Source of the DNA: a virus
DNA: 64,000 nt
Direction: 5' to 3' (one strand)
Virus record (IMG/VR): IMGVR_UViG_3300019776_000252
Coordinates: 10,704-74,703 of that record
Under the pieces are notes generated by a model, which did not search any database, was not told the DNA's origin, and was given only the letters and a program-made list of their open reading frames with translations. The translations under genes and the position numbers were made by a program. Shown in pieces: positions 2,840 to 63,763 of this stretch (within the stretch, counting starts at the first letter, position 1; every line of letters begins with the position of its first letter).

Positions 2840-4078
2840 TTAGGACAATGCGTAATTAGACTTCCTAATAAGTTCTCCTAGATTACTAGACAACTTCTTA
2901 TACTTCAAAGGAGTTCTATACAACTGACCTAACAAGTCATCAACCAAGTCACTTTCAGCTATCTCAGCCAATACATTAATGTATGTCTGACGTAGTACAT
3001 TCATATTGTTAGCGTGACACTTGAACTCATCATGAACAGTTACAACCTCGAATGGCTTATAACTAAGCATGTATTCAACCATCTCTGCTAACTTCTTGAG
3101 ATGTACTACATTGATATATCCCATGCTTTCTACTTCCAAATGAGGAAGTATTACAGCATCGGCTATACCGCTACGTTCATACTGCTTTACATAGTATTGA
3201 ACCTCTTGGCTTACACCCAGAGTAGCTGTTTCCTCACCCATAGAACGCTTAATCAGTTCAATCTCAATCAGATTAGCTGCTCTTTGAACCATCTCACGGT
3301 CATAGTTACATCTCCGATGAATAGTTCTCAGAACATATGCATCTACTGAGTGAACCACATTAGCCACATTAGAGAGACCCTTAGCTGTACCTTCATTCTC
3401 ATAGAACTCATAGGTAAAGCTAGAGTGTCCAAGCTCATCAACCTCAATACGAGCTTCCTTCTTGGTCATAACCTTAACCCTAGCGTCAAATCCATCTGGA
3501 AGCTTCCATTCATGTACCAATGCAAAGGCATTCCAGCTATTCAACAAGTCCTGTAGCAGTTCCCAAGCACCTGGAGCAACCCTAATTGCAGCCTCATAGA
3601 AGGCATTCAACTCAGGCGTATCCTCACCAAATATCTCCTTTGGCTTGGCTTTAGAACCATAGAAACTAGTCATCAGAGCCTCCTTAGCCTGCTGCCTAGA
3701 CACTCCAACAGTACTTCCAAGGATGTTTTGCATCTCGTTAGTAACTGCTGAATAGGCATCTGCACGCTTATTAGGATCTACTAGACCAGTAGCAGTAGCT
3801 CCAGCTACACAGCCTGTAAGAACAGACATAAGCTGGATACCACTACAGCAAGCATCAAAGCCTACCAAGTGACCTGTAGGCTTACCTTGTTGAGCTTTCC
3901 TCAGAGCCATTACAGCCTTCTGATACAGAGGCTTGTTATCTGCATCAACTTCAAGGCTCTCAAGCTTATCCATATTGGTTTTAACCCACTGGATACGATC
4001 CTCAAATAGCAGCTTATCTAGGCCAAATTGATTGGCAATATCAATCAATAAATACTCGTAACCAGTAAATGTTTTCAT
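2840..4078 (-). CDS. RNA polymerase II subunit 2 (N4 gp16-like, RNAP2)
   Basis: T7-type motifs A (GFDACCSGIQ), B (RQQAKEALMTSFYG), C (VHDEF), plus VVHSVDA. Confidence 0.95.
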   Translation of the reverse strand: MKTFTGYEYLLIDIANQFGLDKLLFEDRIQWVKTNMDKLESLEVDADNKPLYQKAVMALRKAQQGKPTGHLVGFDACCSGIQLMSVLTGCVAGATATGLVDPNKRADAYSAVTNEMQNILGSTVGVSRQQAKEALMTSFYGSKAKPKEIFGEDTPELNAFYEAAIRVAPGAWELLQDLLNSWNAFALVHEWKLPDGFDARVKVMTKKEARIEVDELGHSSFTYEFYENEGTAKGLSNVANVVHSVDAYVLRTIHRRCNYDREMVQRAANLIEIELIKRSMGEETATLGVSQEVQYYVKQYERSGIADAVILPHLEVESMGYINVVHLKKLAEMVEYMLSYKPFEVVTVHDEFKCHANNMNVLRQTYINVLAEIAESDLVDDLLGQLYRTPLKYKKLSSNLGELIRKSNYALS

Positions 4079-5770: not shown

Positions 5771-5790
5771 TACTGTACTTATATACAGTA
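5771..5790. promoter_or_regulatory. LexA operator (SOS box)
   Basis: TACTGTACTTATATACAGTA = CTGT-N8-ACAG, 18/20 match to TACTGTATATATATACAGTA; lies in the leader of the SLOG-RNAP1-RNAP2 operon. Confidence 0.75.
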
Positions 5791-26553: not shown

Positions 26554-29500
26554 ATGGCTGAAGACTACCGTGATTATTTCAATAACAAGCTTTCTCAGGA
26601 ACTAGCAGCTACCTCTCAAAAGTTTGGTAGAGATACCCGTTTCGCTGATCTACAAGCAGCCACTAATGAAAAGATTGCACAACTCGGTATTCTCCGAGAG
26701 GAAGCAATTAAGCAACGGGAGATTGACAACCAATCTTGGGTTAAGAAACTTGATCTAGATCCTAATGGCCTAGCTGCTGATATTGCCAACATTGGAGCAA
26801 GTGTTTATCAGGGTATTTCCAACAATATTGTTGGTCCTACTGTAGCCCTGCCTCATACTGTTGGGGCTATTCTTGATCAAGCTCGTCTTACCTCTGCTGA
26901 ACAAGAGGCTTATACCCGCTATAAGCAAAACCAAGCCACACCAGAAGACATTGCCATGTTGAACCAACGCAAGGGTGTTTACACGCCTTCTGCAATGGAA
27001 CTGGCTAGGAATGCTGAAGATAATCGTAAGACTGCTACTGATATTCGAGATGCATTCAATCGGGATGAGGTTATTTACAGTGCTGATCGTAGGAAGCTAT
27101 CCCAAGATCTGGGTCAAGACTTTCAATCTGCATGGGATCAAACTGGTTTAGAAAACCTGTTCACCAAAGGTAAGGAAATTGGTGGAGCAGGAGATGTTGT
27201 TTCTGGTTTAGCCAAACTGATCTATAACGCTGGTAAGGCTGCTGTTAATAATCCCGCAGCTTCTATGCAGTACATGGCAGAAAACCTGCCACAGATGTTC
27301 GTAGGTGGTGCTGGTAAAGCTGGTTCTGCAGCATTGGCTTTAACCAATGCCCAATATGGTGCTGATCTGTACTTCAAGAGTGTCCAGAAGTACCAAGCAG
27401 ATAACAACGGAGCAATGCCCCCACCTGAGTTAGCTCAATCCTTGGCTTTACAAGCAGCAGGGGCTGCTGCCTTGGAACATGCAGGTGAGCTTGGACAACT
27501 TAAGGCTGCTGGGAAGATCGGTAATGCAGCTACAGAGGCTACTAAGGCTGAAGCTACCAAAGGCTTCAAGGAAGCCATCCTAAACGCTGCTAAACCGCTT
27601 GTTCCTGGTATTAAGGCAACTGCTGCAGGTATGGCAGATGAGGCTATTACAGAAGGTGTTCAGACTTACCTTGAGGGTAATCTGGACTTTAAGCCAGCTA
27701 CAGCCAAAGATATCTATGAAGGTGCTGCTATTGGTGGTATTTCTGGTGGTGGTTTGTCTGGTTCTCATAAAGTAGTCCAGCAACTCACGGGTACTACTGA
27801 AGAAGCTATTGCTAAAAAGAAAGAAGACTTCATTGCTGCTGTTGGTTACGCTCAGAACGTAAAAGACAACAATGCTGACTTCTACCTGACTCCTGAGAAT
27901 AATGATCCTGTCAAGGCTATGAAGGTCTTGTTTGATCATGCTCAGTCTGATGCAGCTACTCCTGAAACCAAGGTTCAGAACTATGCCAAAGCATTGGAGA
28001 TCTTGGATCAGATGGAAAGCGAAGTTGCTAAGAAGCAATCTATCTTGGACTATGCAGGTGAGACTCGGGAAGAGTTAAACCGAGCTATTGAGAGTGCTAC
28101 TCAACAGCTTCAAAACCTTGATCTAAATCAACCAGATCAAGCTAAAAAAGCAGAAGTGTTTCAAAATGCGATTGATGAACGTCAAGCCGCAATTGAGCTT
28201 CAAGACGGTGGTACAACCGCAATACAGCGTCAACAAGCGGAGGTAGACGCTAGTAATAAAAAGATCAAGACTGCAACTAACCTTCAGGTTCAGCTTGCAA
28301 ACACCACGAAAGTTTTGGCTTCACAAGAGCAAGTTAATACAGATATTTCTGTAGCTAACTCTCCGGTGAATATTGCTGACCCTGCCTCTATTGATGCTGC
28401 AACAAAATCAATAGAGAGGGTAATCCAAGTGACTTATGCGTCACCAGATAAAGTGTCTCCGCAACAGGCACTAGCAATTGCAGATAACATGGACAATGGC
28501 TTAACAGAGCCACAGCGTACATATCTAAGGGAGTTTTCCAAAGCACGTATTGAACAAAACCTACTCGAAACTACTGAGTCGGTTAATAGCACCATCCTTA
28601 ATGGTTCTAAGGCACATAAAGGTGTTCTTACTTACCAAGCCCAGATTGGTGATGCATTACTGAATAACGACTTTGCTCGTGCAACTCGTTTGGTTGGTTT
28701 GCTGAGTAACTTCGCTAATGACCATACTCAAAAGGCAGAAGTTGCCACAAAAGCACTGGAACAAGCCATTGCTACCAAGCGTTCTGTGCAAGTCATTAAG
28801 ACAGCAGGAAGCAACGGTACTTGGCAGATCAATACTGGTAAGCCACTTGGTCGTGATGAGATGGCTGCAATGGGTGGTGTTACAGCACATCCTAATAGCC
28901 CTAAATCTCGTGCATTGATTGCCAGTATTCCATTGGAAGCCAAGATCCTTCAATCTACTCATGCTGCTCAAGTGGCAGCTATGAACTTGAGATTTGCTGG
29001 TTCTACCGCCTCCGCTACTCCCGCAACACAGACTACGGCTACGCCTTCGTCTGTTGCTCCCGTAGCGTCGGCTGTTCCTAAAACTACAGTAGAATCCCCA
29101 ACTCCCAACTCCCCTATAAATAATCAATCTGAGAACAAGTCAGAGGATGCTGCACGTACTGATATTACATCCAGTACTTCTGCAGGGACAGGCTCACTCC
29201 GTGAGCCACTGACAGATCCAGTTAAAGATACAGCTAACCTAGCTAAACACCAGCCCCTGGTTTCAGATCGTAAGCTGGAAGTACTGAACGATGTTCAGAG
29301 AGCCAAGCTAGAAGACGTTCTTCAGAAGCTTGCTGGTTACTACGGTAATCAGATCAATAGCGTCACGTTCTACATCCAAGACAAACTGGATGCCAACGGT
29401 AAGCCTGAACTAGCTGCAGCCTTTATTGATGACAAGGTTCAAGCTATTGGCTTGCATTCTTCTCTATTCGGTACTTTTAACCTTACAAGTGTCACTGATG

Positions 29501-32500
29501 AGGCTATCTTTGAGTTTGTTGTTGCCCATGAGCTAGGACACGTTAAAGACAAAGAGACTGCTTATGCCTCTGAGAATGCAGAAGAACTCTCTTATGGTGG
29601 TATCGTCTATACTGAAATTTCCAAGGCTCTGAAAGCCAATCAGCTAAGTCCTCTGGCTCAGATGGCCTTTGGGCAGATCTTTAAGGCTGGATTCAAAGGT
29701 AATGTTCCCAAGGAAATCTTCGCTAATCTTCATGCTTTTGCAAGCATCCAACCTGACCTTCTAAAGAAAGAGCTTCCCAATGGATACCAATTCATCCAAG
29801 GACCAGACACAGCAACAACCGGAAACCAAGGAACAACCGAAACAACTCAAGATAGTTCCGTTTCCAGCGTATCTGAACGACCTGCTGACACAAAATCTAC
29901 CGAGTCAACAGACACCGGAACAGAGTCCCAAACAGGAAAGCTAGACGCACTAGTAGGTGATAAGTCTTCCAAGAATTCACCGTTTATTGAACGTAACCTG
30001 CTTGTAGATCATGTTACTCAGCAGATTGGTGATGAGACTAATCTCAACTATCAACGTCCTCTTGTAGCAGTAAAGAACTTCTTTAGTACTGCAGCAGGTA
30101 AGTTCACAGACTTCCTTGCTAAAGGTAGCTACACAGCTTCTGAGAAACAGAATGCTGCTCTTGGCTTGTTCAACTCTATTACTCCTTTGTGGAGCAAGAT
30201 CATTAATAATGATCTGGTTGAGGAAGATAAGAAGTTTCACTACACCACACCATTTAACTGGCTCATCAAGAAAGAAGGCAATAAGCTTCAACTTGAAGAG
30301 AACGTTACTACTGCAATGGTGTATGCAGCACTGAATGCTCTTACTGAACTAGATAGTAAAGGCATCTACAACACCCAAGAAACTATTGCTTCTATGGTTG
30401 GTTTGTCTTCTGTAGCAGGCATTACTCCACAGATGACAGCTACCCTTACTGATGTGGGTATGCGAGCCAATGTATTCCGTAATGCTATTGGTTCTTCAGC
30501 CATGCAAGCTCTTGGCTTCAAGGTAGATAAAGATGCTCCTAAGAACTTAGAAGCACGTCTTGAAGCTGGATTTGCAGGACGTATTGAGAAGCTGCTTATT
30601 GATCGTGGCTTGGTAGAAGTACGGGATATCCCCGCTGCTGAGATGCAGCAGATTGAGAACTCTGTAGCTTTATTTGAAGGACGTAAAGCTCGTAGCTTTG
30701 ATGCCGGTACTAAGTTCAAATTTATCCGTCTAAAGCGTCAAGGAGATAAACTACATCCAGATGTAACTAATCTCTTGGATTCTTTGAAGGGTAGTAATGG
30801 CATTCTGGATAAGCTGTTTGGTGTTCAATCCAACATCAAATATCCTAGTCTTACTCCATTGAACTATGTTCAAACCAAAACAAAAGGCAAACAAGAAGTA
30901 CCAAGTCTTCTTGCAGAAGTGAACCAGCAAAACCAACAAACAAAGAACTTTGTTCGTGAGGATTTGTGGCGTGTTCTTTCTGGTTTGGATTCCTCTGTTA
31001 TTGAAGGTTTGATTGGTATTGTTCCTGAAGGTGCAGATCAGCCAGTAGCTAATGCCCTGTCTACCAAAGCCAAGAATGATGGCTTGCGTAGGGAATGGGC
31101 GATTGCTACCGACTTTGTAAACGACATTCTTCTTAAGACAGCAGAGGGCTTCAATCAGCCTATCTACTTCTCGTATGACACATGGATTCAACAACGTGTT
31201 GGTCTTGATGGTTCTTTGAATCCACAATCCAGCAAGATCCATCGTGCATTGATGACCAAGGAAACTTGGAAGACAGAGATTGATCCCAACAACCTTGGCA
31301 AAGTAGCTTTCATGAAGCTGTTTGTTGCAGAGTCTTTCGGTGTCAAGATTGATCGGATGGACCCAGCTAATTCTTTAGAAAAGTTTAGTAATAAGCTGGC
31401 TGATCCTGTAATTGCTAAGGCAATTGACGATATTCAAGCCAACATCTATGAAGGTACTTCATTAGATTCTGAAAGCCAAGACAATCTACTCAAAGCAGTT
31501 CGTAAAGGTGGTGAGAACCTAGCGACAATGGATGCTATTGTTGCTATGGCTCACTTGCAGCAAGCTATTGCTACTAATAAGCCTGTTACTGTAAGTCTAC
31601 CTGCTAGTGTTGACGGAGTTACCAATGGTCCTATTCTTGGTTTGATTCTGTTCAGTGCTGGCTTGGATGTTAAGTCTTTGAACTATCTAGCTGAGAAAGG
31701 CGGTATCTATACCGATGCTTCTAATGCAGAAGACTTTCCTGAATGGAAAGACAACCCAGCTAATAAAGATCTGTACGAAACAGTAATGGATGACGTATTG
31801 AAACATGTACGTAAAGCCATTGAAAGTGGTCAAGTACCAGTAGAACTAGCTAAGGCTGTTAGCTTCTTCACAGGAGATCTCCGTGAGAAAGACAAGCCTA
31901 CTTCTATTAGTTCTGCAGCACGTAAGATCATCAAGCCACCAGTAACTGAATCAGTATTTGGTGCTGGAGTGTCTACGTCTATTGAGCACATGGCTTTGAA
32001 TTTTGTTGACTCTGTTTATGCCAAGCTTGCAGAAGTCAACCTTATGGACGAAGCAGACAAAGCCGAAGCAGTAAAACACATTAATTACTTACTCTATACA
32101 GGTGGTTCAAAGCTTCGTTTGAATGCTTCTCAGAACCTTAATGATTCGTTCTTACAACCAGAAATCAATGCTATTAAGCAGGCTTTTGGTGACTTGTTTG
32201 GTGAAGCAGTTACCCAAACAATGGAAACACAATTCAGTGCTTTCAAGGAATCTACTCGTACCTATAACCAGTTGGCTTCTACTCTTAACAGCATCTATGA
32301 AAACATCTATGTTGTTAAGCGCCAAGAGTTTATTCAAGAGCTTATTGCTAAGGAAAAAGCAAAGCCTGGTACTGGAATGCCTTATGGATTGGGTAAAGTT
32401 GATCCCAATACAGGCAAACCAATTAAGGACAAGGAAACCCCTTTACGTGATCTAACAACCAAGGAAGAGGAAGAGCTTGCTAAACGACTAGCTCCTGTAT

Positions 32501-35500
32501 TCCCTATTGTTCAGACACTGCTCTCTAGGGAAAGCAACCAACCAAACGCAGGATTGCGTATTGCTTCTATTACAGAAGATCTTAAGCTAAATCCTTTGTA
32601 TCGAACAGCTACCAAGTTCAAGAATGTAATCACTAGTAGTGATTCCAGCTTGTGGGGAAAACACAGCCTAGTAACTCAAAGTTTTACTGAGACTTTTGAA
32701 GATCCGGGTGTAGCAATGCTTCCATTGCTTATCCACTCTTTGGATAGCTACATCTCTCACACGACACAGAAAGACATGGAACTATTGAATGTCCATGACT
32801 CTGTTGTTGGTGGTTTAAACACTATTGCAGAAGCCAGTGAAAAGATTAACAAAGTTACCTTTAATGCTCTGCTGAAGTTCTCTCCAATGGGTGAGATGTA
32901 CCATTCACTAGAGAACATGATTACTGGTTTATCTTTGTTAAAAGACCGTAATGAACTGACACCAGAGATTCTTAGCAAGCTAGGTAAAGAAGGCTCTTTT
33001 GTTAAGAAGCTGATGAATACTCATGCAGCAGTACGTGAAGCTGATACAGCCAAACTTAATGCAATGCTTAAGTGGGTTTCTGTTAATCAGTATGCTCTTA
33101 CTGGTGGTGCTTACACAGTTACCGAGGAAGATACCAAGGCAGTAGAGAAAGCTTTGGAAGCTACCAAAGAGCCTATTAATCCTTTGATCTTGCAACGTGC
33201 TCGTGATCTGGACAAGTTGTTTAAGGCTAAGGATACCCAAGACAACAAGCCAAAGGCAGACAACGCACCAATATTGCCACCAAGCAATACCTACAGTACT
33301 CATGACATTTTTAATGCCATTGATACGAATGGTGTTAGCCCTACCTTTAGGGATCATCTAAGCAAGATCTTGACTGACATTGTTGAGCGTCTTCATGGTT
33401 CATTTGGTACTCTTACCGAAGCCATGATGAAAGACACTCCATTGGCACCAATTGATGTGTTCTCTACCGCTATGGCTACTGGTGTAGCTCCCTTTGCTTC
33501 TGAACTGGTTGCTTCTGGTTTCAAGTTTGACAACCAAAGCATGTTTGTTGCAGAACAGATCGAAGCCACAGTACGTAGCTTGATCAGCAATGGCAACCAG
33601 AACAACTCCGTTGTTTACAACGAACTAGTTCGCTTGGAGAAGGAAACTCGTCAACGTCTTAAGGTTCAAGACTTCCATAAAGGTGACTGGAATACAGCAA
33701 ACCAACAGGAAAAAGACAAGGCACAAGCCTTGTACGACTACCTTTTTAACAAGGTAGATACCAATTACTTGGCTAGGTTTGCTGCTCTTGGTTTGGCTCA
33801 TGAAGACTTCAATAAGCTCTTGCAAGTTCCAACCAAGTTGGCTCCCAAGATCATGGAAGACAAGACTATTGCAGGTGTATTGGGCCGAGTCTTCCAGAAG
33901 ATTACTCAGTTGATCAACGGTAAATTGACCAACACAAAGCCAGGACAAGCAGCAGACCTTAAATTGAATCTGTTGGTTCGTCAATTGGTAGAGATTGAGA
34001 ACAAACGCAAAGTCATGTTGACTATGAAAGATACCAGCTTGGTTTCATTCATGGATAAGACTATGCGTGCTACTCGTAAGGGTGCTAGAACTCAATTTGC
34101 CAACGTATTGAACAGCAGCATGTTCATGCATAACAAGAACGCAGTTATTAGTGCTGGTTCTAGGTTTGCCAATGCTATTGCGAATAATCAATTGAAGTAC
34201 TGGTTTAAGGGAATGCAAATCCTTCGCAACCGTACTATCAAAGATATTCAAGGTACAGGAGCATCAATACTTGGTGAGATGAATGGTCCAGCAATGTCTA
34301 TTGCTACTATCTTCCGTCTTACTAAGACGTTGGAAAAGCATCGTAAAGACGCTATTACTTTCACCAGTAAGGCAGTAATTGAGTCCTTTGTGAACAAAGG
34401 CAAAGACCTAACGACAAGCGCAAAAGCAAGCATTAGCAATGTGTTGCTTCGTTCCGGTGCTTATGTCTTGCAATCTAAGTACGACATGAAGCAGTTGGAA
34501 ACATTGCTTCGTGATACCACTGCTTTGAATAAAGAAATCCAAAGCCATGAAGATCTCTTGAAGCAAGAAGCAGGAACAGACTATGGCTACGTACAGGCAC
34601 AGTCAGCAGCTTTGGGTTATTTCTTGGTAACAGGACAATCCACAATTGAGTACCTACTTAAGAACGCAAACAACATTGCTAAGTTGGCAGGTACAAAGAA
34701 TTATGGAAAATTCTCCCCCGCCCAAGAAAAGAAAGTAACTGAATTGGTAGATGTGTTGACCAGCTTGTACGCACTTCGGTACAACACAGCCACAGCACGT
34801 AACGAAGTAGCAGACGTATTGGGCAAAGAGAACGCACGAACAGACGAAGACCACGGTATTCGTATGGTGTTTGCCCAGCATGAGCAGCTAGAACTGGATG
34901 CTAAGGAACGTCTGTTTGATGGCTCTGAGGCATTGATGCAGAAGGGATATACCCCAGAGATTTATAACCCCCACACAGACATTCAAGTAGTGGAAGCAGG
35001 CATGGGTAAAGACCTAGAAAATCTTGGCTACACCAAGGTTTCTAAGCTTGGTTTAGATCCTATGGACCCAGCCACATCCTCTAAGGAAATGTACGTTCTT
35101 AGAGATGGTGGTTTGCTTCCTTGGCTTTCTGGCATCTTTTCTTACACCAGTATGAAGGCCAAGGGAACGCAGGTACATAGTGGCTATAACCAACAGGTGC
35201 ATAACCAGATCATGTTGGATAAGCAGAATGCTATGGCTAAGTACACAGGTACATTTGACCCTACAAAGGTAACTGCTAACTACACAGTTCCTCTGTTGAA
35301 TTCCAACATGTATCCGGTCAACTTCCAATACATGATGACCAGTGATACCAAAGATACTTTGCTTGAGCGCAATAACGACATGGCATCTATCTTGGGTACA
35401 TTGGCAGGTAATACCTACGACAAGGAAGCTTCTAGCGTACAGAACAAAAAGGCTGTGGAACTCTTCTATAAAGAGTTTAAAGCTAACTACACAAAGCATC

Positions 35501-36744
35501 CTGATGGCTTTATGGCTGTTAGTGCTACTAGTTCTATTCCTGAGCTACGTGAAATCTATTCAATGCTTCCTAAAGCCACCAAGGATCACATTCGTGAAAT
35601 CTGGGGTAAGGATGAAATGCTTATTGATGTAGCCAATCTGGATATTGCTTTTGGATATCGCAAGAAGAGCCTGTCTACAGTGTTTGACAAGGATGAAGCA
35701 GAACGTAACTCACTAGAGAAGCTGTTCCACTTCGTAGTAACCAGAATGCTCTATGACTATGCACGAGTAATGAAGCACATGTCTGTAGCAGATGCAGAAA
35801 CATTCTCTAAGAGTGCTGCTGTACGTGTTCGTAGAGCAGAGAACATGTGGCAAGCTCTGGTTCACGAAGTTAAAGATATCTATGTAGTAAAGAACATTAC
35901 TACTTCACTGGATAACATCAAGAGTAACTACATCATGCTGATGTTGTACGGTGTTCCAGTGATGGATATTGTTAAAGATACTACTGTAGCTTGGATTGAA
36001 GCAAGTAAGTATCGTAAGACTACTGAAGAAGTAGCCTTACTTAAGGCTAAGTTAGCTAAAGGCTACACACAAGGTAGTACTAAACGTATTGAAAATGAGA
36101 TTGCTCGTCTTGAATCTAACCTTAGTAATAGTCCTGTGCATGAGCTAATGGTTGCTGGCATGATGCCAACAATTGTGGAAGATGTTGGTGCTGTAGATGA
36201 TCCTTATTCTTATAAGGCTGGTTTCATCCATAAGATGGAGAAGTTCACTAATAAGATTAATCCACATGTTAAAAATGTGGCTAAACATGTCTACATGGCC
36301 CACGACACACCACAATATAAGGTGTTAAGCCAGATCACTCAATTGAGTGACTTTGTTGGTAAGTATGCTCTGTATAAGCACCTTACTACCCGCAAGCACA
36401 ACCCTATTGCTAAGGATGTTGCTATGCAGGAAGTATCAGACGCATTTATTAACTACGATATCCCAATGCATCGAAATCTCCAATATTTGGATGACATGGG
36501 TTTTAGCATGTTTAATAAATACTTCTTGCGTATTCAGCGTGTAATTCGTGGTCGCTTTATTCACGCTTCAGGAAAGATGGCTGGAATGATGTTCTTTGAA
36601 AAGAACGTAACCAATCTGCCTACTATTCTGGATTCCTCTGTATTGCTTAGGTTTGGCAATAATCCATTCTCTCTAGGAGCTTTGAATTACCCAAGTGCTC
36701 TTGGTGAGTTACCTGCACTGAAGATGGTTAGTAGCATCTTCTAA
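26554..36744 (+). CDS. Virion-encapsidated RNA polymerase (N4 gp50-like vRNAP)
   Basis: 3396 aa; LNPQSSKIHR, motif A DGVTNG, motif B RKIIKPPVTESVFG, motif C NVHD; no cysteine seen on reading, as in N4 vRNAP. Confidence 0.96.
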   Translation: MAEDYRDYFNNKLSQELAATSQKFGRDTRFADLQAATNEKIAQLGILREEAIKQREIDNQSWVKKLDLDPNGLAADIANIGASVYQGISNNIVGPTVALPHTVGAILDQARLTSAEQEAYTRYKQNQATPEDIAMLNQRKGVYTPSAMELARNAEDNRKTATDIRDAFNRDEVIYSADRRKLSQDLGQDFQSAWDQTGLENLFTKGKEIGGAGDVVSGLAKLIYNAGKAAVNNPAASMQYMAENLPQMFVGGAGKAGSAALALTNAQYGADLYFKSVQKYQADNNGAMPPPELAQSLALQAAGAAALEHAGELGQLKAAGKIGNAATEATKAEATKGFKEAILNAAKPLVPGIKATAAGMADEAITEGVQTYLEGNLDFKPATAKDIYEGAAIGGISGGGLSGSHKVVQQLTGTTEEAIAKKKEDFIAAVGYAQNVKDNNADFYLTPENNDPVKAMKVLFDHAQSDAATPETKVQNYAKALEILDQMESEVAKKQSILDYAGETREELNRAIESATQQLQNLDLNQPDQAKKAEVFQNAIDERQAAIELQDGGTTAIQRQQAEVDASNKKIKTATNLQVQLANTTKVLASQEQVNTDISVANSPVNIADPASIDAATKSIERVIQVTYASPDKVSPQQALAIADNMDNGLTEPQRTYLREFSKARIEQNLLETTESVNSTILNGSKAHKGVLTYQAQIGDALLNNDFARATRLVGLLSNFANDHTQKAEVATKALEQAIATKRSVQVIKTAGSNGTWQINTGKPLGRDEMAAMGGVTAHPNSPKSRALIASIPLEAKILQSTHAAQVAAMNLRFAGSTASATPATQTTATPSSVAPVASAVPKTTVESPTPNSPINNQSENKSEDAARTDITSSTSAGTGSLREPLTDPVKDTANLAKHQPLVSDRKLEVLNDVQRAKLEDVLQKLAGYYGNQINSVTFYIQDKLDANGKPELAAAFIDDKVQAIGLHSSLFGTFNLTSVTDEAIFEFVVAHELGHVKDKETAYASENAEELSYGGIVYTEISKALKANQLSPLAQMAFGQIFKAGFKGNVPKEIFANLHAFASIQPDLLKKELPNGYQFIQGPDTATTGNQGTTETTQDSSVSSVSERPADTKSTESTDTGTESQTGKLDALVGDKSSKNSPFIERNLLVDHVTQQIGDETNLNYQRPLVAVKNFFSTAAGKFTDFLAKGSYTASEKQNAALGLFNSITPLWSKIINNDLVEEDKKFHYTTPFNWLIKKEGNKLQLEENVTTAMVYAALNALTELDSKGIYNTQETIASMVGLSSVAGITPQMTATLTDVGMRANVFRNAIGSSAMQALGFKVDKDAPKNLEARLEAGFAGRIEKLLIDRGLVEVRDIPAAEMQQIENSVALFEGRKARSFDAGTKFKFIRLKRQGDKLHPDVTNLLDSLKGSNGILDKLFGVQSNIKYPSLTPLNYVQTKTKGKQEVPSLLAEVNQQNQQTKNFVREDLWRVLSGLDSSVIEGLIGIVPEGADQPVANALSTKAKNDGLRREWAIATDFVNDILLKTAEGFNQPIYFSYDTWIQQRVGLDGSLNPQSSKIHRALMTKETWKTEIDPNNLGKVAFMKLFVAESFGVKIDRMDPANSLEKFSNKLADPVIAKAIDDIQANIYEGTSLDSESQDNLLKAVRKGGENLATMDAIVAMAHLQQAIATNKPVTVSLPASVDGVTNGPILGLILFSAGLDVKSLNYLAEKGGIYTDASNAEDFPEWKDNPANKDLYETVMDDVLKHVRKAIESGQVPVELAKAVSFFTGDLREKDKPTSISSAARKIIKPPVTESVFGAGVSTSIEHMALNFVDSVYAKLAEVNLMDEADKAEAVKHINYLLYTGGSKLRLNASQNLNDSFLQPEINAIKQAFGDLFGEAVTQTMETQFSAFKESTRTYNQLASTLNSIYENIYVVKRQEFIQELIAKEKAKPGTGMPYGLGKVDPNTGKPIKDKETPLRDLTTKEEEELAKRLAPVFPIVQTLLSRESNQPNAGLRIASITEDLKLNPLYRTATKFKNVITSSDSSLWGKHSLVTQSFTETFEDPGVAMLPLLIHSLDSYISHTTQKDMELLNVHDSVVGGLNTIAEASEKINKVTFNALLKFSPMGEMYHSLENMITGLSLLKDRNELTPEILSKLGKEGSFVKKLMNTHAAVREADTAKLNAMLKWVSVNQYALTGGAYTVTEEDTKAVEKALEATKEPINPLILQRARDLDKLFKAKDTQDNKPKADNAPILPPSNTYSTHDIFNAIDTNGVSPTFRDHLSKILTDIVERLHGSFGTLTEAMMKDTPLAPIDVFSTAMATGVAPFASELVASGFKFDNQSMFVAEQIEATVRSLISNGNQNNSVVYNELVRLEKETRQRLKVQDFHKGDWNTANQQEKDKAQALYDYLFNKVDTNYLARFAALGLAHEDFNKLLQVPTKLAPKIMEDKTIAGVLGRVFQKITQLINGKLTNTKPGQAADLKLNLLVRQLVEIENKRKVMLTMKDTSLVSFMDKTMRATRKGARTQFANVLNSSMFMHNKNAVISAGSRFANAIANNQLKYWFKGMQILRNRTIKDIQGTGASILGEMNGPAMSIATIFRLTKTLEKHRKDAITFTSKAVIESFVNKGKDLTTSAKASISNVLLRSGAYVLQSKYDMKQLETLLRDTTALNKEIQSHEDLLKQEAGTDYGYVQAQSAALGYFLVTGQSTIEYLLKNANNIAKLAGTKNYGKFSPAQEKKVTELVDVLTSLYALRYNTATARNEVADVLGKENARTDEDHGIRMVFAQHEQLELDAKERLFDGSEALMQKGYTPEIYNPHTDIQVVEAGMGKDLENLGYTKVSKLGLDPMDPATSSKEMYVLRDGGLLPWLSGIFSYTSMKAKGTQVHSGYNQQVHNQIMLDKQNAMAKYTGTFDPTKVTANYTVPLLNSNMYPVNFQYMMTSDTKDTLLERNNDMASILGTLAGNTYDKEASSVQNKKAVELFYKEFKANYTKHPDGFMAVSATSSIPELREIYSMLPKATKDHIREIWGKDEMLIDVANLDIAFGYRKKSLSTVFDKDEAERNSLEKLFHFVVTRMLYDYARVMKHMSVADAETFSKSAAVRVRRAENMWQALVHEVKDIYVVKNITTSLDNIKSNYIMLMLYGVPVMDIVKDTTVAWIEASKYRKTTEEVALLKAKLAKGYTQGSTKRIENEIARLESNLSNSPVHELMVAGMMPTIVEDVGAVDDPYSYKAGFIHKMEKFTNKINPHVKNVAKHVYMAHDTPQYKVLSQITQLSDFVGKYALYKHLTTRKHNPIAKDVAMQEVSDAFINYDIPMHRNLQYLDDMGFSMFNKYFLRIQRVIRGRFIHASGKMAGMMFFEKNVTNLPTILDSSVLLRFGNNPFSLGALNYPSALGELPALKMVSSIF

Positions 36745-58557: not shown

Positions 58558-61059
58558 ATGCCAACCTCTAAGTCATTTCAAGAGATTCAGAACTTTGCTA
58601 GAAATTCTGCTGGCTGGTTTTTTGATGTAGATGGTGTCTACAAACCAGCAAGAGTTAATTACATTCGTAATAACACTATGCTTGGTGTTATTGCTGGTAG
58701 TCCAGGCACTATCCCAACTAACTGGGCTATTGATGGTAACGAGAATGGCTTAACTCGTACCATTGTTGGTGTTGGTGTTGAGAATGGTATTAGCTACATA
58801 GATGTTCAATGGTCTGGAACACCTACAGCTACTTCTGATCTAGATCATTTCTTTGAAACTGGTAACGGTATTGGAGCTAGTAATGGACAGACTTGGACAG
58901 GTTCTGTTTACTTAAAACTAGTATCAGGCACATTGCCAGGAACTGTAGTTCACTATGGCTATGTTCTGGATTCAAGCCAAACGTTTATTAATCTTCTAGA
59001 CTTCGGCACTCTTAGCGTTAATTCAACGCTTACTCGTTTTGTTGGTACTGGTCAAATCAATACAGCTAGTGCTACTTACATGCGTCCTACGGTAAAGATA
59101 AGCTACACACTTAGTGTGGCAGTTAACTTCACCATTCGTATTGGAATGCCTCAACTTGAACTAGGTCTTACACCAAGTACTGTAGCCCCTACTGTTATTG
59201 CTACTAGTGGAGCACCTCGTAGAGCTTATGACCCTAGCTGCTATGACTTTGGATATCTTCTAAACACTGAACTAGTTACTAATGGTCCTACTGGTTTTGC
59301 TAATACCACTGGTATTGCTGCAGGTAACTCTGCAACTATTGCAGCCACTGGTAATGAACTAGTTATTACCCAAGCTGCATCCAGTGTCTATGGACAAGCA
59401 CAAGTTTCATACTCTGGTTTAACAGTAGGTAAGCGTTATCGTTTGTCTATTAAGTACTCTAATCTCACTGATACTACTGGTGGAACAATCATCCAGTTTG
59501 GTACACAGACAGTTGGTAATCCTTATTCCATAGATACCTTTATCTATGATTGGTTGTGTACTAGTGCTTCTGGAAGTATCAACATAAGCCATAGCAATAC
59601 CAATCCAATTGGTGCCAAGATCAATGTAGCTTCCTTGTCTCTACAAGAAATAGTAGCTAAGACAGTTGGTACTGAACTAGCTGTTAATGGTTCCTTCAGT
59701 GCAGATACTAATTGGACTAAAGGTAACGCTGCATGGACTATTTCTGGTGGAACATTGAACTGTAATGGTTCTTCTGCAGGTGTTTGGACAACTGCCAGTG
59801 ATATGCCTGCTGTAAGCGTAGGCAAAACATACAGAATTATTTGGACTGTTACAACTACTACTGCAGGTAGCGGAGTATCTGTTGGTTTTAATGGAACAAC
59901 TACAAATAACGTAGGTGGTACATATTCAACTTCTGGAACATTTATTGATTACGTTACTGTTCCTTATGGTTCAACTAGCTTCTTCATTGGTGCTCGTGGA
60001 GCAGGTACTTGGGCAGGTAGTATTGATAACATATCAATACAAGAAGTAATGTTCCGTCCTGTTGGTGTAATGTCTGAAGACACTAGAACCAACATGATTA
60101 ACTACACAGAGAATTTAGGTGATAACACTTATTGGAATAATGCCGGTAGTGTTACTGCTGCTGCAGGAGAAACATCTCCTACTGGTGCAACAGCAGCCTT
60201 AGTAACATTTACAGCTTCTGGAACTCGTTATAGGACTGCACAATCCCTTACTGCAGGTATTGCCTACACTTCTAGTCTTTATATGAAGTGGGTATCTGGT
60301 GCTACTAATCTAGTATTTGTAGCTTGCTCTTCAGGAAGTTTTGGAGGTACTGGTGGAGATAGAACACTGGTGTTTAGTGGTATCAACGGAGGTTGGGTAA
60401 GCAATAGTTCCGAAATAACTTCTTACTCTATTACTCGTTGCGGTAATGGTTGGTTTAGGGTATCAGCAACATATACTCCTACAACTACCAACGTCACTAA
60501 CATAGGTGTTCAAGCCGGTGCTGCTAACGTAACAGCAGCATGGGGTGCTCAGATAGAGCAAGGAAGTATTGCTACTTCTTATATCCCTAACCCTAGTGCT
60601 ACTTATAACCAACGTGTCTACGACAACATAGCCATTACAGGTAACAAGCTAACTGATTGGTTTACCCAATACAGTACAGGTGCTTTTGTTATTGAGTATG
60701 AACCAAATGCTAACTCTGCTGGTTATTTGCTTGGTTCTGCAGCTTGTGGACTTCAAGGCGGTCAAGCAAGTCTTTCTCAATGGAATAACATTACTACAGT
60801 TACAAATAGTGGTCCAACAACTCCATTTGAGAAATGTAAGGTTGCTTTATCTTATATAGGTAACAAGCGTGTAGCCTGTATCAACGGCTCTATGGCTACT
60901 ATTGATAACAATCCAGCATTTACCACTGCTGTTACTGGCTTGTATATTGGGTCCTTTAGTAGTGCTTCTGGAAACATTCAGAATGGAGCCATTAGAACTG
61001 TTAAGTACTACAAGGATGGTTTGACTGAGGCAGCTATGCGCTACCTCACGGCTAACTAA
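58558..61059 (+). CDS. Head-spike fibre protein 2, paralogue of the preceding gene
   Basis: Same motif order: DGV.K, P.T.PT.W, PQLE.G, E.TRTN, NGWFR, GAQIEQG..ATSYI. Confidence 0.7.
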   Translation: MPTSKSFQEIQNFARNSAGWFFDVDGVYKPARVNYIRNNTMLGVIAGSPGTIPTNWAIDGNENGLTRTIVGVGVENGISYIDVQWSGTPTATSDLDHFFETGNGIGASNGQTWTGSVYLKLVSGTLPGTVVHYGYVLDSSQTFINLLDFGTLSVNSTLTRFVGTGQINTASATYMRPTVKISYTLSVAVNFTIRIGMPQLELGLTPSTVAPTVIATSGAPRRAYDPSCYDFGYLLNTELVTNGPTGFANTTGIAAGNSATIAATGNELVITQAASSVYGQAQVSYSGLTVGKRYRLSIKYSNLTDTTGGTIIQFGTQTVGNPYSIDTFIYDWLCTSASGSINISHSNTNPIGAKINVASLSLQEIVAKTVGTELAVNGSFSADTNWTKGNAAWTISGGTLNCNGSSAGVWTTASDMPAVSVGKTYRIIWTVTTTTAGSGVSVGFNGTTTNNVGGTYSTSGTFIDYVTVPYGSTSFFIGARGAGTWAGSIDNISIQEVMFRPVGVMSEDTRTNMINYTENLGDNTYWNNAGSVTAAAGETSPTGATAALVTFTASGTRYRTAQSLTAGIAYTSSLYMKWVSGATNLVFVACSSGSFGGTGGDRTLVFSGINGGWVSNSSEITSYSITRCGNGWFRVSATYTPTTTNVTNIGVQAGAANVTAAWGAQIEQGSIATSYIPNPSATYNQRVYDNIAITGNKLTDWFTQYSTGAFVIEYEPNANSAGYLLGSAACGLQGGQASLSQWNNITTVTNSGPTTPFEKCKVALSYIGNKRVACINGSMATIDNNPAFTTAVTGLYIGSFSSASGNIQNGAIRTVKYYKDGLTEAAMRYLTAN

Positions 61060-61988
61060 ATCCCATCAGCTATCTGGCTTATCGTAGGCCGATAGTAGGT
61101 GTTCATCAGTAGATTCAAATTCTTGTGTCTACTGATCTTCGCTAAGGTCATCACATCGACTTTCTTTGCTAAGTGAGTTAATGCGGTGGCCCTAGTATCA
61201 TGGAACGTTAAACCAGTGATTTGAAGCTCTCTACAGAGCTTACTGAACAACACAGAACCCTCATTAGCATCAACCACAAATGATGGTCTTGCTAACAACT
61301 TCCTAGCTATTCTGCCTATTGGGATTCGTCCTACTTGTTCTGTCTTGGTTTTGAGAGTTACAACCTTCGTCAGAGGGTCATAGTTGTCTGGTGCTTGAAG
61401 TACTTCAGACATTCTCATACCAGTCCTCAGAGCGATGTGAAAGGCATCCTGCATCTCTTTAGTCTTACCTACCCTAGGTGCTCTCAAAACTCGTTTTATA
61501 GCCTTCCAGCCCCATACAGATTGTCTGGGTTGGTTTTCTTTAGGCATCTTGGCTCCTGAGAATGGATCATGGTCAAGCCACTTCCATTCCTTACGAGCCA
61601 GATTTAACAGGTTTCGCAATAGATTTGCTTCCCTGACTACGGTAGATCCACTGACTGTTTCCAGCCTTGTGTCTCTCCATTTGGCTATGTCTGGAGTGTC
61701 TAGATCCTGAAGGATCTGATCCTTACCAAAGTGCTCTAGCATCTGTTCTAGCCTACGCACTTCCCAAGGACCGCCATCTTTCTTGGATGAGACTTCTTTT
61801 TGGTACTTCTCTACGGCATCACCAAAGGTGTGAATGCCTGTTTGTTTGTCTCTCTTGGCTTTGGCTTCTTGCTCAGTAGCCCATGCTTGAGCTTCTCTTT
61901 TCGTATCGAAGGATTTGCTTGAACGTTTACCGTTCCTAGCTATCTGAGCTTGCCACTTACCAGAGGGAATCTTTTGGATGTAGGCCAT
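61056..61988 (-). CDS. int: Tyrosine integrase
   Basis: N-terminal arm-binding domain (GKWQAQI...SKSFDTKREAQAWA), TGMR.SE, K, HDTR, H, C-terminal YY. Confidence 0.93.
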   Translation of the reverse strand: MAYIQKIPSGKWQAQIARNGKRSSKSFDTKREAQAWATEQEAKAKRDKQTGIHTFGDAVEKYQKEVSSKKDGGPWEVRRLEQMLEHFGKDQILQDLDTPDIAKWRDTRLETVSGSTVVREANLLRNLLNLARKEWKWLDHDPFSGAKMPKENQPRQSVWGWKAIKRVLRAPRVGKTKEMQDAFHIALRTGMRMSEVLQAPDNYDPLTKVVTLKTKTEQVGRIPIGRIARKLLARPSFVVDANEGSVLFSKLCRELQITGLTFHDTRATALTHLAKKVDVMTLAKISRHKNLNLLMNTYYRPTISQIADGI

Positions 61989-62026
61989 TCGTAATCACCA
62001 TTCGTACTTTATTCGGGGAGCATTCG
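61987..62026. repeat. Four ATTCG direct repeats, candidate integrase arm sites
   Basis: ATTCG at 61987, 62000, 62011, 62022 (spacing 13, 11, 11). Confidence 0.7.
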
Positions 62027-62031
62027 GAAAC

Positions 62032-62054
62032 AAAAAGACCTCCATTGGGAGGTC
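62032..62054 (-). terminator. Terminator downstream of the attP tRNA fragment
   Basis: Minus strand GACCTCC-CAAT-GGAGGTC then TTTTT. Confidence 0.8.
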
Positions 62055-62097
62055 GTGTAGTGTATCCGTAGCATCTTTCCAATGAAAGTAACCTAAA

Positions 62098-62115
62098 TGG
62101 TGCCCGAGGCCGGAA
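62098..62115 (-). other. attP core: 3' end of a tRNA, probably tRNA-Leu
   Basis: Minus strand TTCCGGCCTCGGGCACCA = part of T-loop, T-stem 3' side, acceptor 3' side, discriminator A, CCA; no rest of tRNA; between xis and int. Confidence 0.85.
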
Positions 62116-62127
62116 CTTAACCTACAG

Positions 62128-62340
62128 CTAAGAAGGCCCTGATTCGTAATCCATTCGACTTTTGACTGCTTTTCGATGCATAAATGCAGCTACTTCAGAC
62201 CTAAGCCAGAGTGGATTACGAGCACTAGAACCAGGAGCAATGTCAGGGAATCCTATCGTCTTGGTAAGAACATCCCTAGCATGTCTCCTGCTGCACTTGT
62301 AGATCTTTGCCAGATCATCCAGATTCAACAGACCGATCAT
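62128..62340 (-). CDS. xis: Excisionase / AlpA-like winged-helix protein
   Basis: LL.L.DLA..Y..S.........GFP......R..LW..SEV..F; adjacent to attP and int. Confidence 0.8.
   Translation of the reverse strand: MIGLLNLDDLAKIYKCSRRHARDVLTKTIGFPDIAPGSSARNPLWLRSEVAAFMHRKAVKSRMDYESGPS
62142..62157. repeat. Two ATTCG repeats on the other side of the core, candidate arm sites
   Basis: ATTCGTAATCCATTCG; the 10-mer ATTCGTAATC is identical to 61987-61996. Confidence 0.65.
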
Positions 62341-62474
62341 AGAGGGCTGACCTCCCTACGCTCATGCTTCTTCAAAGACTGAATAGCGTTGTGAATCACA
62401 TGAGCTTGGTGAAGTTTTCCGTTGGCTTGGTAATCCTGACGAATTTGCTCAAGAATTTCAATTGCTCGTTGCAT
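62337..62474 (-). CDS. 45-aa hypothetical protein (not in ORF track)
   Basis: MQRAIEILEQIRQDYQANGKLHQAHVIHNAIQSLKKHERREVSPL; ATGA overlap with xis. Confidence 0.6.
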   Translation of the reverse strand: MQRAIEILEQIRQDYQANGKLHQAHVIHNAIQSLKKHERREVSPL

Positions 62475-62670
62475 CTTCAGCCTCCGCTTGTTTCTTCAGA
62501 TCTGTGTAGTGACCCATGCAAAGCATGTACTCTTTACGATCCAAGCCAGTAGCATCACGAGCTTCTGCTGAGTACATGTTGAAGTGCCCAGACTGACGAA
62601 CAGCTTCGTAGATCTTCCAGTTCTCAATCTGTTTAGGAGTAAATTTCTTATTAGGCATTACTAATTCCAA
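62458..62670 (-). CDS. Small phage protein
   Basis: YEAVRQSG.FNM...A...TGL...EY......Y..L; true start may be 62658. Confidence 0.65.
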   Translation of the reverse strand: MELVMPNKKFTPKQIENWKIYEAVRQSGHFNMYSAEARDATGLDRKEYMLCMGHYTDLKKQAEAEDATSN

Positions 62671-62956
62671 TTAAAGAGTCATTAACTTTCATTGTGATTT
62701 GTGGTTTGCTTACTGGCCTAGCAAATAGAGCCATATTCATTGGTAATACTATTGAAGGATCAACAGTACGATAGGTTGGATAACCACCATAAGGACCATT
62801 TACATAAGCTACTGGTTCTGTAGTAATTTCTTGTGCTGCTTCAGCATCAAGACAAAACATTTCAATAATCTCTTCAAGATCACAGCAGCGGTTTTGATAG
62901 TGACAAGCCAATTTAATAGCTTTACTTAAAGCTTCTTCAAGAGCCACAATGTTCAT
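62651..62956 (-). CDS. Hypothetical protein
   Basis: 101 aa, EPVAY motif, coupled ORF. Confidence 0.6.
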   Translation of the reverse strand: MNIVALEEALSKAIKLACHYQNRCCDLEEIIEMFCLDAEAAQEITTEPVAYVNGPYGGYPTYRTVDPSIVLPMNMALFARPVSKPQITMKVNDSLIGISNA

Positions 62957-63132
62957 ATATCCACCTTTGCAGTAGCTGTGGTTTCTATTACTAGAGTTTC
63001 ACCAGCAGCAAAATTAACTATAGGAACAAGCATCCAAAAAGCCAGCTTGTTTCCGTAGTAAAACTCAGCAACAAGACCATCATATTTCGGCTTGATTTCA
63101 ATCCTGTCATAAGGTACTTGTACTTCTGTCAT
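62953..63132 (-). CDS. 59-aa hypothetical protein (not in ORF track)
   Basis: MTEVQVPYDRIEIKPKYDGLVAEFYYG...; ATGA overlaps at both ends. Confidence 0.6.
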   Translation of the reverse strand: MTEVQVPYDRIEIKPKYDGLVAEFYYGNKLAFWMLVPIVNFAAGETLVIETTATAKVDI

Positions 63133-63311
63133 ACATCCCCCTTCAGTGCTTCTTCCTTCTCCTTGGCTACCCGCTGAGAAGTCAACAAAGCAACTCGTAT
63201 CTCAGGGTCTATGCTCGACAACACCCCATAGACTTCTTCAATGCTCATACCTTTAAGGGTGGCATCATTGATGTGGGTAATGATTAGATTGCGTAGTTCT
63301 GTAAACGTCAT
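63129..63311 (-). CDS. Hypothetical protein
   Basis: 60 aa, ATGA-coupled. Confidence 0.6.
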   Translation of the reverse strand: MTFTELRNLIITHINDATLKGMSIEEVYGVLSSIDPEIRVALLTSQRVAKEKEEALKGDV

Positions 63312-63763
63312 ACATCCCTCATCAGTGCTGCACGGGCAGCGATTACCTGTCCTGCTGGCTTTGCATTCAGTAAGCCCTCACAAGATTCTGTGTACTGCAC
63401 CAACATCGACAACGCCTCACGCAACCGAGCAACTTCTGCCTGTGCTTCAACGAGTTGTGCCTTAAATTCTTTATCAACCAATTGCGCTACTTGACACTGC
63501 TTGTCCAAAGCTCGGTGTGCTTCAGCGAGTTGGGTGCGTAGCTCGTCTTCTACTTTCGCTGCACCGTCTAACACCAGCAGTCCCATACTCTTTTCATGCT
63601 CCAACTCTTGGCGTAGTGCTGCGAGTGCGGAGGTGGGGTAGAGTGGCTCCATATCAGGAAGCTTGTTAAGTTCTCGGTAGTCGATGGCAATACTTTTGTT
63701 TCCAGTTGAGTACGCTACAACGTGACCTACTGGCTCCACATCCACCTTGTTTGTGTCAGTCAT
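63308..63763 (-). CDS. Coiled-coil accessory protein of a type common in temperate phages
   Basis: EPV...PLY...AEVARLREAL...ARAAL pattern; visibly GC-richer than the core genome. Confidence 0.65.
   Translation of the reverse strand: MTDTNKVDVEPVGHVVAYSTGNKSIAIDYRELNKLPDMEPLYPTSALAALRQELEHEKSMGLLVLDGAAKVEDELRTQLAEAHRALDKQCQVAQLVDKEFKAQLVEAQAEVARLREALSMLVQYTESCEGLLNAKPAGQVIAARAALMRDV

Follow-up and report, generated by a model that had tools for sequence, protein, structure and literature searches.

A putative lambda-type integration cassette aimed at tRNA-Leu in the genome of an N4-like phage from an aquatic metagenome

In bacteriophage lambda, site-specific integration depends on a heterobivalent tyrosine integrase (Int) which, together with Xis, acts on an attachment site (attP) made up of core and arm sites, the bacterial site (attB) being intergenic. 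N4-like phages, in which early transcription needs an RNA polymerase (RNAP) delivered by the virion, serve as a model for virion-delivered transcription and are used as ‘safe’, strictly lytic candidates for therapy. Here we describe a putative integration cassette, consisting of an integrase gene (int), an attP derived from a tRNA gene and a xis-like gene, in an N4-like phage genome, IMG/VR record IMGVR_UViG_3300019776_000252. All positions are those of the window, the whole stretch of 64,000 nucleotides that was analysed, which represents bases 10704-74703 of this 74,703-bp record. According to the main text of a recent survey, 54 uncultured N4-like genomes and proviruses mined from IMG/VR carry lysogeny hallmark genes, and a lysogenic strategy is proposed there for some N4-like viruses (mSystems 2023; PMC10654107); the view that N4-like phages are classically lytic, on which the first-pass annotation of this DNA had leant for novelty, is thus outdated. 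The present phage resembles those genomes in combining an N4-like backbone with a lysogeny hallmark gene, and comes from the same database. Unlike the main text of that survey, which lists integrases and gives neither attP anatomy nor tRNA targets (the word ‘tRNA’ occurs there once, for host prediction), we define a candidate attP core, arm sites, terminator and Xis, and trace the cassette to integrated phages that are not N4-like. A further point of comparison is provided by T7-like cyanophages with int and a tRNA-Leu attP, which have been shown experimentally to integrate during lytic infection without giving rise to lysogens (PMC8776855). Like P-SSP7 and S-TIP37, the phage described here belongs to a supposedly lytic podovirus lineage and has an integrase, an attP identical to part of a host tRNA-Leu gene and no recognised repressor. 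It differs in that the cyanophage attP, of 39-44 bp, is found downstream of int and corresponds to the tRNA's first half, in that no Xis or arm-site array has been described for them, and in that integration is experimental there and predicted from sequence here (PMC8776855).

Our reading, to which we give a probability of roughly 0.8, is that the locus is an intact lambda-type site-specific recombination cassette, with a heterobivalent Int, a winged-helix factor and an attP with a tRNA core, and that it was horizontally acquired by an N4-like phage. In its architecture the locus follows the lambda-type systems, with the 3' end of a tRNA gene as the common kind of target, and the sequence indicates that it very probably works as an integration module directed at tRNA-Leu. 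The intact integrase, the Xis-like gene, the 18-nt tRNA end and the terminator in the same orientation that the first-pass annotation had described were each found where it had placed them (Table 1). Int matched phrog_1 over residues 8-305 (E=4e-45) and PF00589 with 37.6 bits against a cut-off of 27.1, a match that spans residues 247-301 only. The catalytic set R192, K215, H263, R266, H288 and Y298 was assigned from an alignment with the integrase in PDB entry 5c6k, and these columns are invariant or nearly so across 128 homologues. The N-terminal part (residues 4-111) matched the N-terminal integrase family phrog_11531 (E=5e-8), and the precomputed domain list contains an additional N-terminal Pfam family. 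Homologues number ~1,500 in public protein data, the top 120 being 68-77% identical, and the closest are encoded on long contigs (e.g. 155.8 kb, 94.9 kb and 69.1 kb). The best cultured relatives in the protein search, 35-40% identical, belong to Burkholderia, Ralstonia and Pseudomonas phages of 32-48 kb; when the module was compared by blastn with 50,697 GenBank phage records, nothing matched.

Table 1. Coordinates of the cassette features in the window (xis, Xis-like gene; ORF, open reading frame)
Feature	Position	Strand	Basis or remark
Tyrosine integrase, int, 310 aa	61056-61988	minus	N-terminal arm-type DNA-binding region and C-terminal catalytic domain, predicted from ORF, profiles and PDB alignment
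P' arm, four CGAAT repeats on the int strand, at 61987, 62000, 62011 and 62022	61987-62026	minus	Fixed positions in relatives
Terminator-like hairpin GACCTCC-CAAT-GGAGGTC, then T-run TTTTTGTTTC	62027-62054	minus	Same strand as tRNA end, xis and int
Non-coding spacer, core to terminator, 44 nt	62055-62098	minus	Many invariant columns in nine-cassette alignment
attP core, TTCCGGCCTCGGGCACCA, 18 nt	62099-62116	minus (same strand as int and xis)	Single occurrence; identical to tRNA-Leu 3' end
Degenerate tRNA T-arm remnant GTAGGTTAAG (hosts: GCCGGTTCGA)	62117-62126	minus	Left limit of attP/attB identity
P arm, two repeats, at 62142 and 62153, inside 3' end of the xis ORF	62142-62157	minus	Likewise in relatives
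Xis-like ORF, 70 aa, candidate recombination directionality factor	62128-62340	minus	ORF, position, conservation and fold

The core of attP is composed of the last two bases of the T loop, the 3' halves of the T stem and the acceptor stem, the discriminator A and CCA, and its last ~14 nt are the portion kept in all related cassettes. The bases 5' of the 18-mer form only a degenerate echo of a T arm, and identity with attB therefore begins in the T loop. By its sequence, attP is of the tRNA-targeting kind, being identical in its core to the 3' part of a tRNA gene and lying in the orientation that would rebuild that gene; the core is on the int strand, as it is in integrated relatives. Strand exchange most likely takes place in the last ~14 nt of the core, since in several cassettes the identity to tRNA does not start before GGCC. 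A crossover in the T loop was rejected, as attP reads TTAAGTT where the hosts have TTCGATT and several cassettes are identical only from GGCC on. Between the 18-mer and int, the terminator has a 7-bp stem with five G-C pairs and a 4-nt loop; it is kept in seven of the eight aligned relative cassettes (the exception being L123), and compensatory stem differences are found among the relatives, with GCCTCCCC/GGAGGC in place of GACCTCC/GGAGGTC. The spacer contains an inverted repeat, CTTTC-N4-GAAAG, and the block GCTAC-N-G-N-TACACTACA, and it is conserved across cassettes although their integrases are only ~70% identical; it may be a binding site for a host factor or recombinase, or a promoter element.

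The repeats of the two arms, read as ATTCG on the plus strand, are spaced at 13, 11 and 11 bp in the P' arm and at 11 bp in the P arm. Six copies on one strand fall within 181 bp, compared with 31 in the other 63.8 kb (Poisson P ~6e-10) and a maximum of three in any other 181-bp stretch of the window, which confirms the six same-direction repeats, mostly 11 bp apart and on both sides of the core, that had been noted at first pass. The repeat at 61987 overlaps the int ATG (61986-61988), again as annotated, and this overlap is conserved in relatives, whose P-arm repeats also lie at the matching relative position, ~-160 to -175 from the int start. With four repeats on one side of the core and two on the other, all distinct from the core itself, the predicted attP has the arm arrangement of lambda-type sites. 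As in lambda, a putative arm-binding N-terminus is combined with a catalytic C-terminus, repeats flank a short core and a small candidate directionality factor is encoded beside attP. Unlike in lambda, the core lies in the 3' end of a tRNA gene rather than corresponding to an intergenic attB, xis and int are on opposite sides of attP so that integration would separate the two, and no IHF sites were identified in the attP described here; nor did a PDB search detect sequence similarity between this Int and that of lambda.

The ATG of xis overlaps the stop codon of an upstream 45-aa ORF (ATGA, 62337-62340), and xis is therefore the last gene of a ~20-kb minus-strand early/middle block, to the end of which it looks translationally coupled. 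In more than 20 related cassettes a homologue of the Xis-like protein, 30-78% identical, is encoded immediately upstream of attP; in a set of ten such cassettes the identity is 30-64%. The AlphaFold model (predicted local distance difference test score, pLDDT, 82) forms a small winged-helix domain, the best fold matches of which are of the MerR type, among them the GIsul2 excisionase, which belongs to a transposon, BldC and the DNA-binding domains of terminase small subunits (TerS). These matches are weak by E value (0.07-0.3), with template modelling (TM) scores of 0.5-0.68 and Foldseek probabilities of 0.9-0.99. Against curated families no convincing match was obtained for the protein, and HTH_17 weakly matched three of 11 members of the Xis family.

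The comparative data are the strongest part of the case. Among loci taken from IMG/VR and metagenomes, more than 30 related cassettes share one order, namely a Xis homologue, two repeats, a tRNA-Leu end, a spacer, a terminator, three to four repeats and int, with integrases 47-77% identical to the one described here and the last repeat at the int ATG. Their cores vary in the way that tRNA-Leu acceptor stems vary (CTCGGGC, CCCGGGC and TCCCGGC). The arm repeats keep their position and change their sequence, both within alignment A2 (CGAAT, CGAAC, CAAAC and CAAAT) and between cassettes (CGAAT, CCCGAA, GCAAAC, CCCGCAC and TTACGCA), and core and arm-repeat sequences covary; position-fixed, sequence-changing repeats are what would be expected of arm-type sites that co-evolve with the arm-binding domain of their integrase. 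Nine relatives are integrated directly downstream of tRNA-Leu. In eight of them (L126, L191, L192, L193, L384, L390, L395 and L399), whose integrases are 47-64% identical, int is preceded on its own strand, at a distance of 110-215 nt, by a complete tRNA-Leu gene. The ninth, L183 (int 71% identical), represents an attL: its sequence right of the core follows the attP of L122 and L179, and to the left it carries the host version of the tRNA T arm where those two attP sites carry the phage version. According to the first-pass proposal, integration would regenerate the end of the tRNA, bring in a terminator and move xis and int apart; this follows from the geometry of the locus, and it is in this layout that the relatives are integrated. 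One locus (L393:6005-7102) has a 52%-identical integrase directly downstream of tRNA-Arg(CCU) and not of tRNA-Leu, which points to at least one change of target within the integrase family.

The 18-mer was searched by exact match, with one genome per species, and at least 120 loci were found. ARAGORN was run on 40 loci, and in 26 of these the 18-mer forms exactly the 3' end of a called tRNA-Leu gene, for the most part UAA and in some cases CAA; among the matches listed, the tRNA-Leu T arm GCCGGTTCGA stands before it in ~115 of 121 sites. The genomes concerned, again among the matches listed, are mostly of Burkholderiales (including Polynucleobacter, Limnohabitans, Undibacterium and Variovorax), Xanthomonadales, Aeromonas and Moritella, with scattered others. 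Of the earlier assignment to a tRNA-Leu of Betaproteobacteria, then, the tRNA-Leu end stood, but the restriction to Betaproteobacteria did not. The candidate host is a proteobacterium with this tRNA-Leu end, most likely one of the low-GC aquatic Burkholderiales. No Int homologue was found at E<=1e-60 in 401 Burkholderiaceae genomes, the best match in 241 Polynucleobacter genomes was 39-40% identical, and five candidate genomes with the 18-mer had no Int homologue.

Two further observations concern this tRNA end. In ten genomes with the 18-mer and the T arm no tRNA was called by ARAGORN or Rfam (loci L004, L007, L010, L017, L020, L034, L052, L054, L067 and L075). In L017 (Variovorax sp., 3090-3400) an insert of ~240 nt parts U34 from A35 in the anticodon loop of the tRNA-Leu(UAA) gene. 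It matches the Rfam group I intron model from end to end (34.6 bits, E=4.5e-7, which is below the gathering score), and the other nine loci probably hold the same intron-split tRNA-Leu. Group I introns have reportedly been mapped in bacterial tRNA genes in a preprint of 2020. The second observation is of a different cassette with an identical 18-mer core, in attP configuration, in a metagenome-assembled genome of an uncultured freshwater betaproteobacterium (L016:2449-3900); its Int is 46% identical to the one described here, the core lies ~150 nt upstream of int, and another small helix-turn-helix gene lies upstream.

The backbone that carries the cassette has the marks of the Schitoviridae. 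A 3396-aa ORF (26554-36744) is the virion RNA polymerase (vRNAP; phrog_2206, E=0), both subunits of the RNAP1/RNAP2 enzyme were found (phrog_2166 and phrog_2051), the major capsid protein is of the N4 type (phrog_1357) and 58-70% identical to capsid proteins of cultured Schitoviridae such as Pseudomonas phage LUZ7, and the portal protein (phrog_1216) and a primase are also encoded. On this gene content the genome is a genuine N4-like (Schitoviridae-type) one. The ends of the record share an 85-bp overlap, and the assembly, of aquatic metagenome origin, is therefore circularly closed at ~74.6 kb. The cassette sits where the minus-strand early/middle block converges with a plus-strand tail-fibre block, and the stop codon of int overlaps that of the tail-fibre gene.

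Almost nothing but int and xis is shared between this phage and the contigs with related cassettes, the exceptions being a few small-ORF matches in two short contigs (L184 and L189), which might be from related podoviruses. The cassette-family phages (contigs of 15-62 kb, e.g. L122, L179, L184 and L375, and the integrated L126, L191-L193 and L183) have the identical order of elements. Unlike the present phage, however, their records lack vRNAP in all nine of the larger ones tested (including G627-G629 and G635-G639), have a higher GC content and carry other core variants and arm-repeat sequences. The vRNAP-encoding prophages at tRNA-Leu that the first-pass annotation had suggested looking for were thus not found among these nine. 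Three of the records (G627, G628 and G629, of 28.6-38 kb, corresponding to L124, L125 and L126) are small temperate phages with a related integrase and a capsid gene of phrog_1357, as in N4 (E 1e-51 to 1e-76), without vRNAP; of the three, one carries a provirus flag and one sits at tRNA-Leu in integrated form. The idea that the integrated relatives are themselves N4-like was rejected, since G627-G629 and G635-G639 are without vRNAP. As the tested relatives of the cassette are without vRNAP, the cassette appears, on comparison of gene content, to have come horizontally into the N4-like backbone from smaller temperate phages of aquatic proteobacteria. Its residence there has been long, and the join is neither recent nor artefactual, because the GC content of int (45%) is near that of the phage (42%; relatives 48-69%, most 55-69%), the int and fibre stop codons overlap and independent contigs bridge the junctions. 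Of 24 N4-like records whose capsid proteins share 60-75% identity with that of this phage, seven have an integrase. One of the seven integrases is 33% identical to this Int and the other six show no detectable similarity to it; where neighbours are recognisable, the integrase adjoins different backbone genes. N4-like phages of this clade have therefore acquired different integration modules several times.

From these elements we propose a course of events in which the steps after circularisation are inferred from the family. The phage genome would circularise, Int would bind to the core and to all six arm repeats, four of them in P' and two in P, and would recombine the core with the 14-18 nt that end a tRNA-Leu(UAA or CAA) gene of the host. 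Phage DNA would then restore the 3' end of the tRNA, followed by the phage terminator, which would also insulate int from read-through out of the tRNA gene. After integration, int would adjoin the tRNA at attL, and xis, which closes the early/middle block, would come to lie at attR, at the far end of the prophage, so that Xis would be made only upon transcription of that block. The repeat over the int start codon could let Int restrict its own synthesis.

Several points weigh against this reading. Neither this phage nor any N4-like genome carrying the cassette was found in integrated form in IMG/VR, in a JGI/ENA metagenome scan, in the 241 Polynucleobacter and 401 Burkholderiaceae genomes or in the contigs of four runs, a search that did not take in the contigs of 155.8, 94.9 and 69.1 kb with the closest integrases. 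No Pfam repressor family was detected among 20 small ORFs of the early region, most of which match no family, leaving room for a novel repressor. In the stretch from the terminator to the int ATG, no sigma-70-like promoter was detected that could serve int. The Xis assignment is built on position, conservation and a weak match of the modelled fold. N4-type early transcription, moreover, relies on RNAP brought in by the virion, and a prophage would need another start for its lytic cascade. Across 60000-63500, the contigs of the four runs showed no joints or loose ends at the core and no attL or attR, and in the three metagenomes that cover attP (X1, X2 and X5) the attP form alone was seen at contig level. 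Contigs drop rare variants, however, so these attP-only contigs say nothing on the absence of integration.

How far the cassette takes the phage towards lysogeny is a further matter, and a temperate life style is plausible. The first-pass annotation had spoken of functional lysogeny and a full temperate circuit, which went too far: with no integrated copy, no repressor among the 20 small ORFs and the attP form only, stable lysogeny is something that we infer. A true temperate cycle, with a stable prophage in which an unrecognised repressor and/or LexA at an SOS box would silence the cascade until DNA damage, extends our explanation rather than replacing it, and we put it at somewhat less than even odds. 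It draws on the complete cassette, on the N4-like proviruses of the 2023 survey, as given in its main text (PMC10654107), and on two of the 24 N4-like relatives (G406 and G421) that IMG/VR labels as proviruses; the ends of these two records showed no att repeats, and no tRNA was called there by ARAGORN. It also draws on a near-consensus LexA box, TACTGTATATAAGTACAGTA (5771-5790, minus strand), which lies upstream of the minus-strand RNAP1/RNAP2 operon, ~30 nt from its first gene; G416 (TACTGTATATAAACACAGTA) and G423 have similar boxes in the corresponding interval between RNAP1 and the terminase-side genes. The box itself, which the first-pass annotation had reported, is thus real, but its presence does not track with integrase among the 24 N4-like relatives: it is absent from all seven integrase-bearing ones, and the three that bear it show no integrase within their incomplete records. 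The ends of the incomplete records G416, G423 and G429 gave no sign that the part missing from them is an int module, and no sigma-70-like promoter overlaps the box. A prophage would be without virion-delivered RNAP to fire its early promoters, and for this reason one may invoke a LexA-controlled host promoter that transcribes the RNAP1/RNAP2 operon after DNA damage, by which a temperate Schitovirus would solve the N4 ‘bootstrapping’ problem through the SOS response. We regard this last reading as distinctly doubtful; if true, read-through of the 20-kb leftward block would make Xis distally and hence couple induction to excision.

The next possibility, which we think less likely than not though a serious rival, is integration without lysogeny, whereby the genome inserts in a fraction of cells during lytic infection and neither stable maintenance nor immunity follows. 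The cyanophages introduced above, another ‘lytic’ podovirus lineage, set the precedent without repressor homologues (PMC8776855), and the missing repressor and the attP-only contigs of the present phage fit the same pattern. Rare junctions are invisible in contigs, however, and this cassette, unlike that of the cyanophages, has a conserved candidate directionality factor and a full arm-site architecture, and is common to phages found as prophages.

That the cassette is an inactive passenger or relic, gained by recombination with a prophage and unused by the phage, is very improbable. Its origin is clearly horizontal and cultured N4-like phages are lytic, but both ORFs are intact with all catalytic residues present, the GC content has ameliorated to the phage level and the core is still an exact match to real tRNA genes. 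A variant from a freshwater metagenome of another study (X5) also tells against decay: there, 20 listed nucleotide differences fall in 19 int codons, 17 of which are changed synonymously and two with a change of residue, and, although int differs by 6%, the core, the terminator stem and the arm repeats are unchanged, the 139-bp intergenic region having just two differences, both within the terminator loop. This looks like purifying selection on a working module. An assembly chimera of an N4-like phage and a temperate-phage fragment, which a metagenome assembly and the occurrence of related cassettes in unrelated phages might suggest, is hardly credible, given that a 43.6-kb contig of run X1 spans the module at even depth, that contigs of a second sample (X2) cover fibre/int (60784-61570), attP (61890-62223) and xis/early genes (62211-62823), bridging both junctions of cassette and backbone with zero differences, that the assembly closes on itself with the 85-bp overlap and that the int and fibre stops overlap.

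The picture of integrase-bearing N4-like genomes and proviruses published in 2023 is, as far as the main text of that survey goes, not changed by this case (PMC10654107). What the case adds is a donor pool, in that the same cassette occurs in smaller temperate phages integrated at tRNA-Leu, together with a defined minimal core and a map of arm sites. Well-documented integration cassettes on N4-like backbones weaken the assumption that this is a lytic family, and they give a concrete attP/attB pair.

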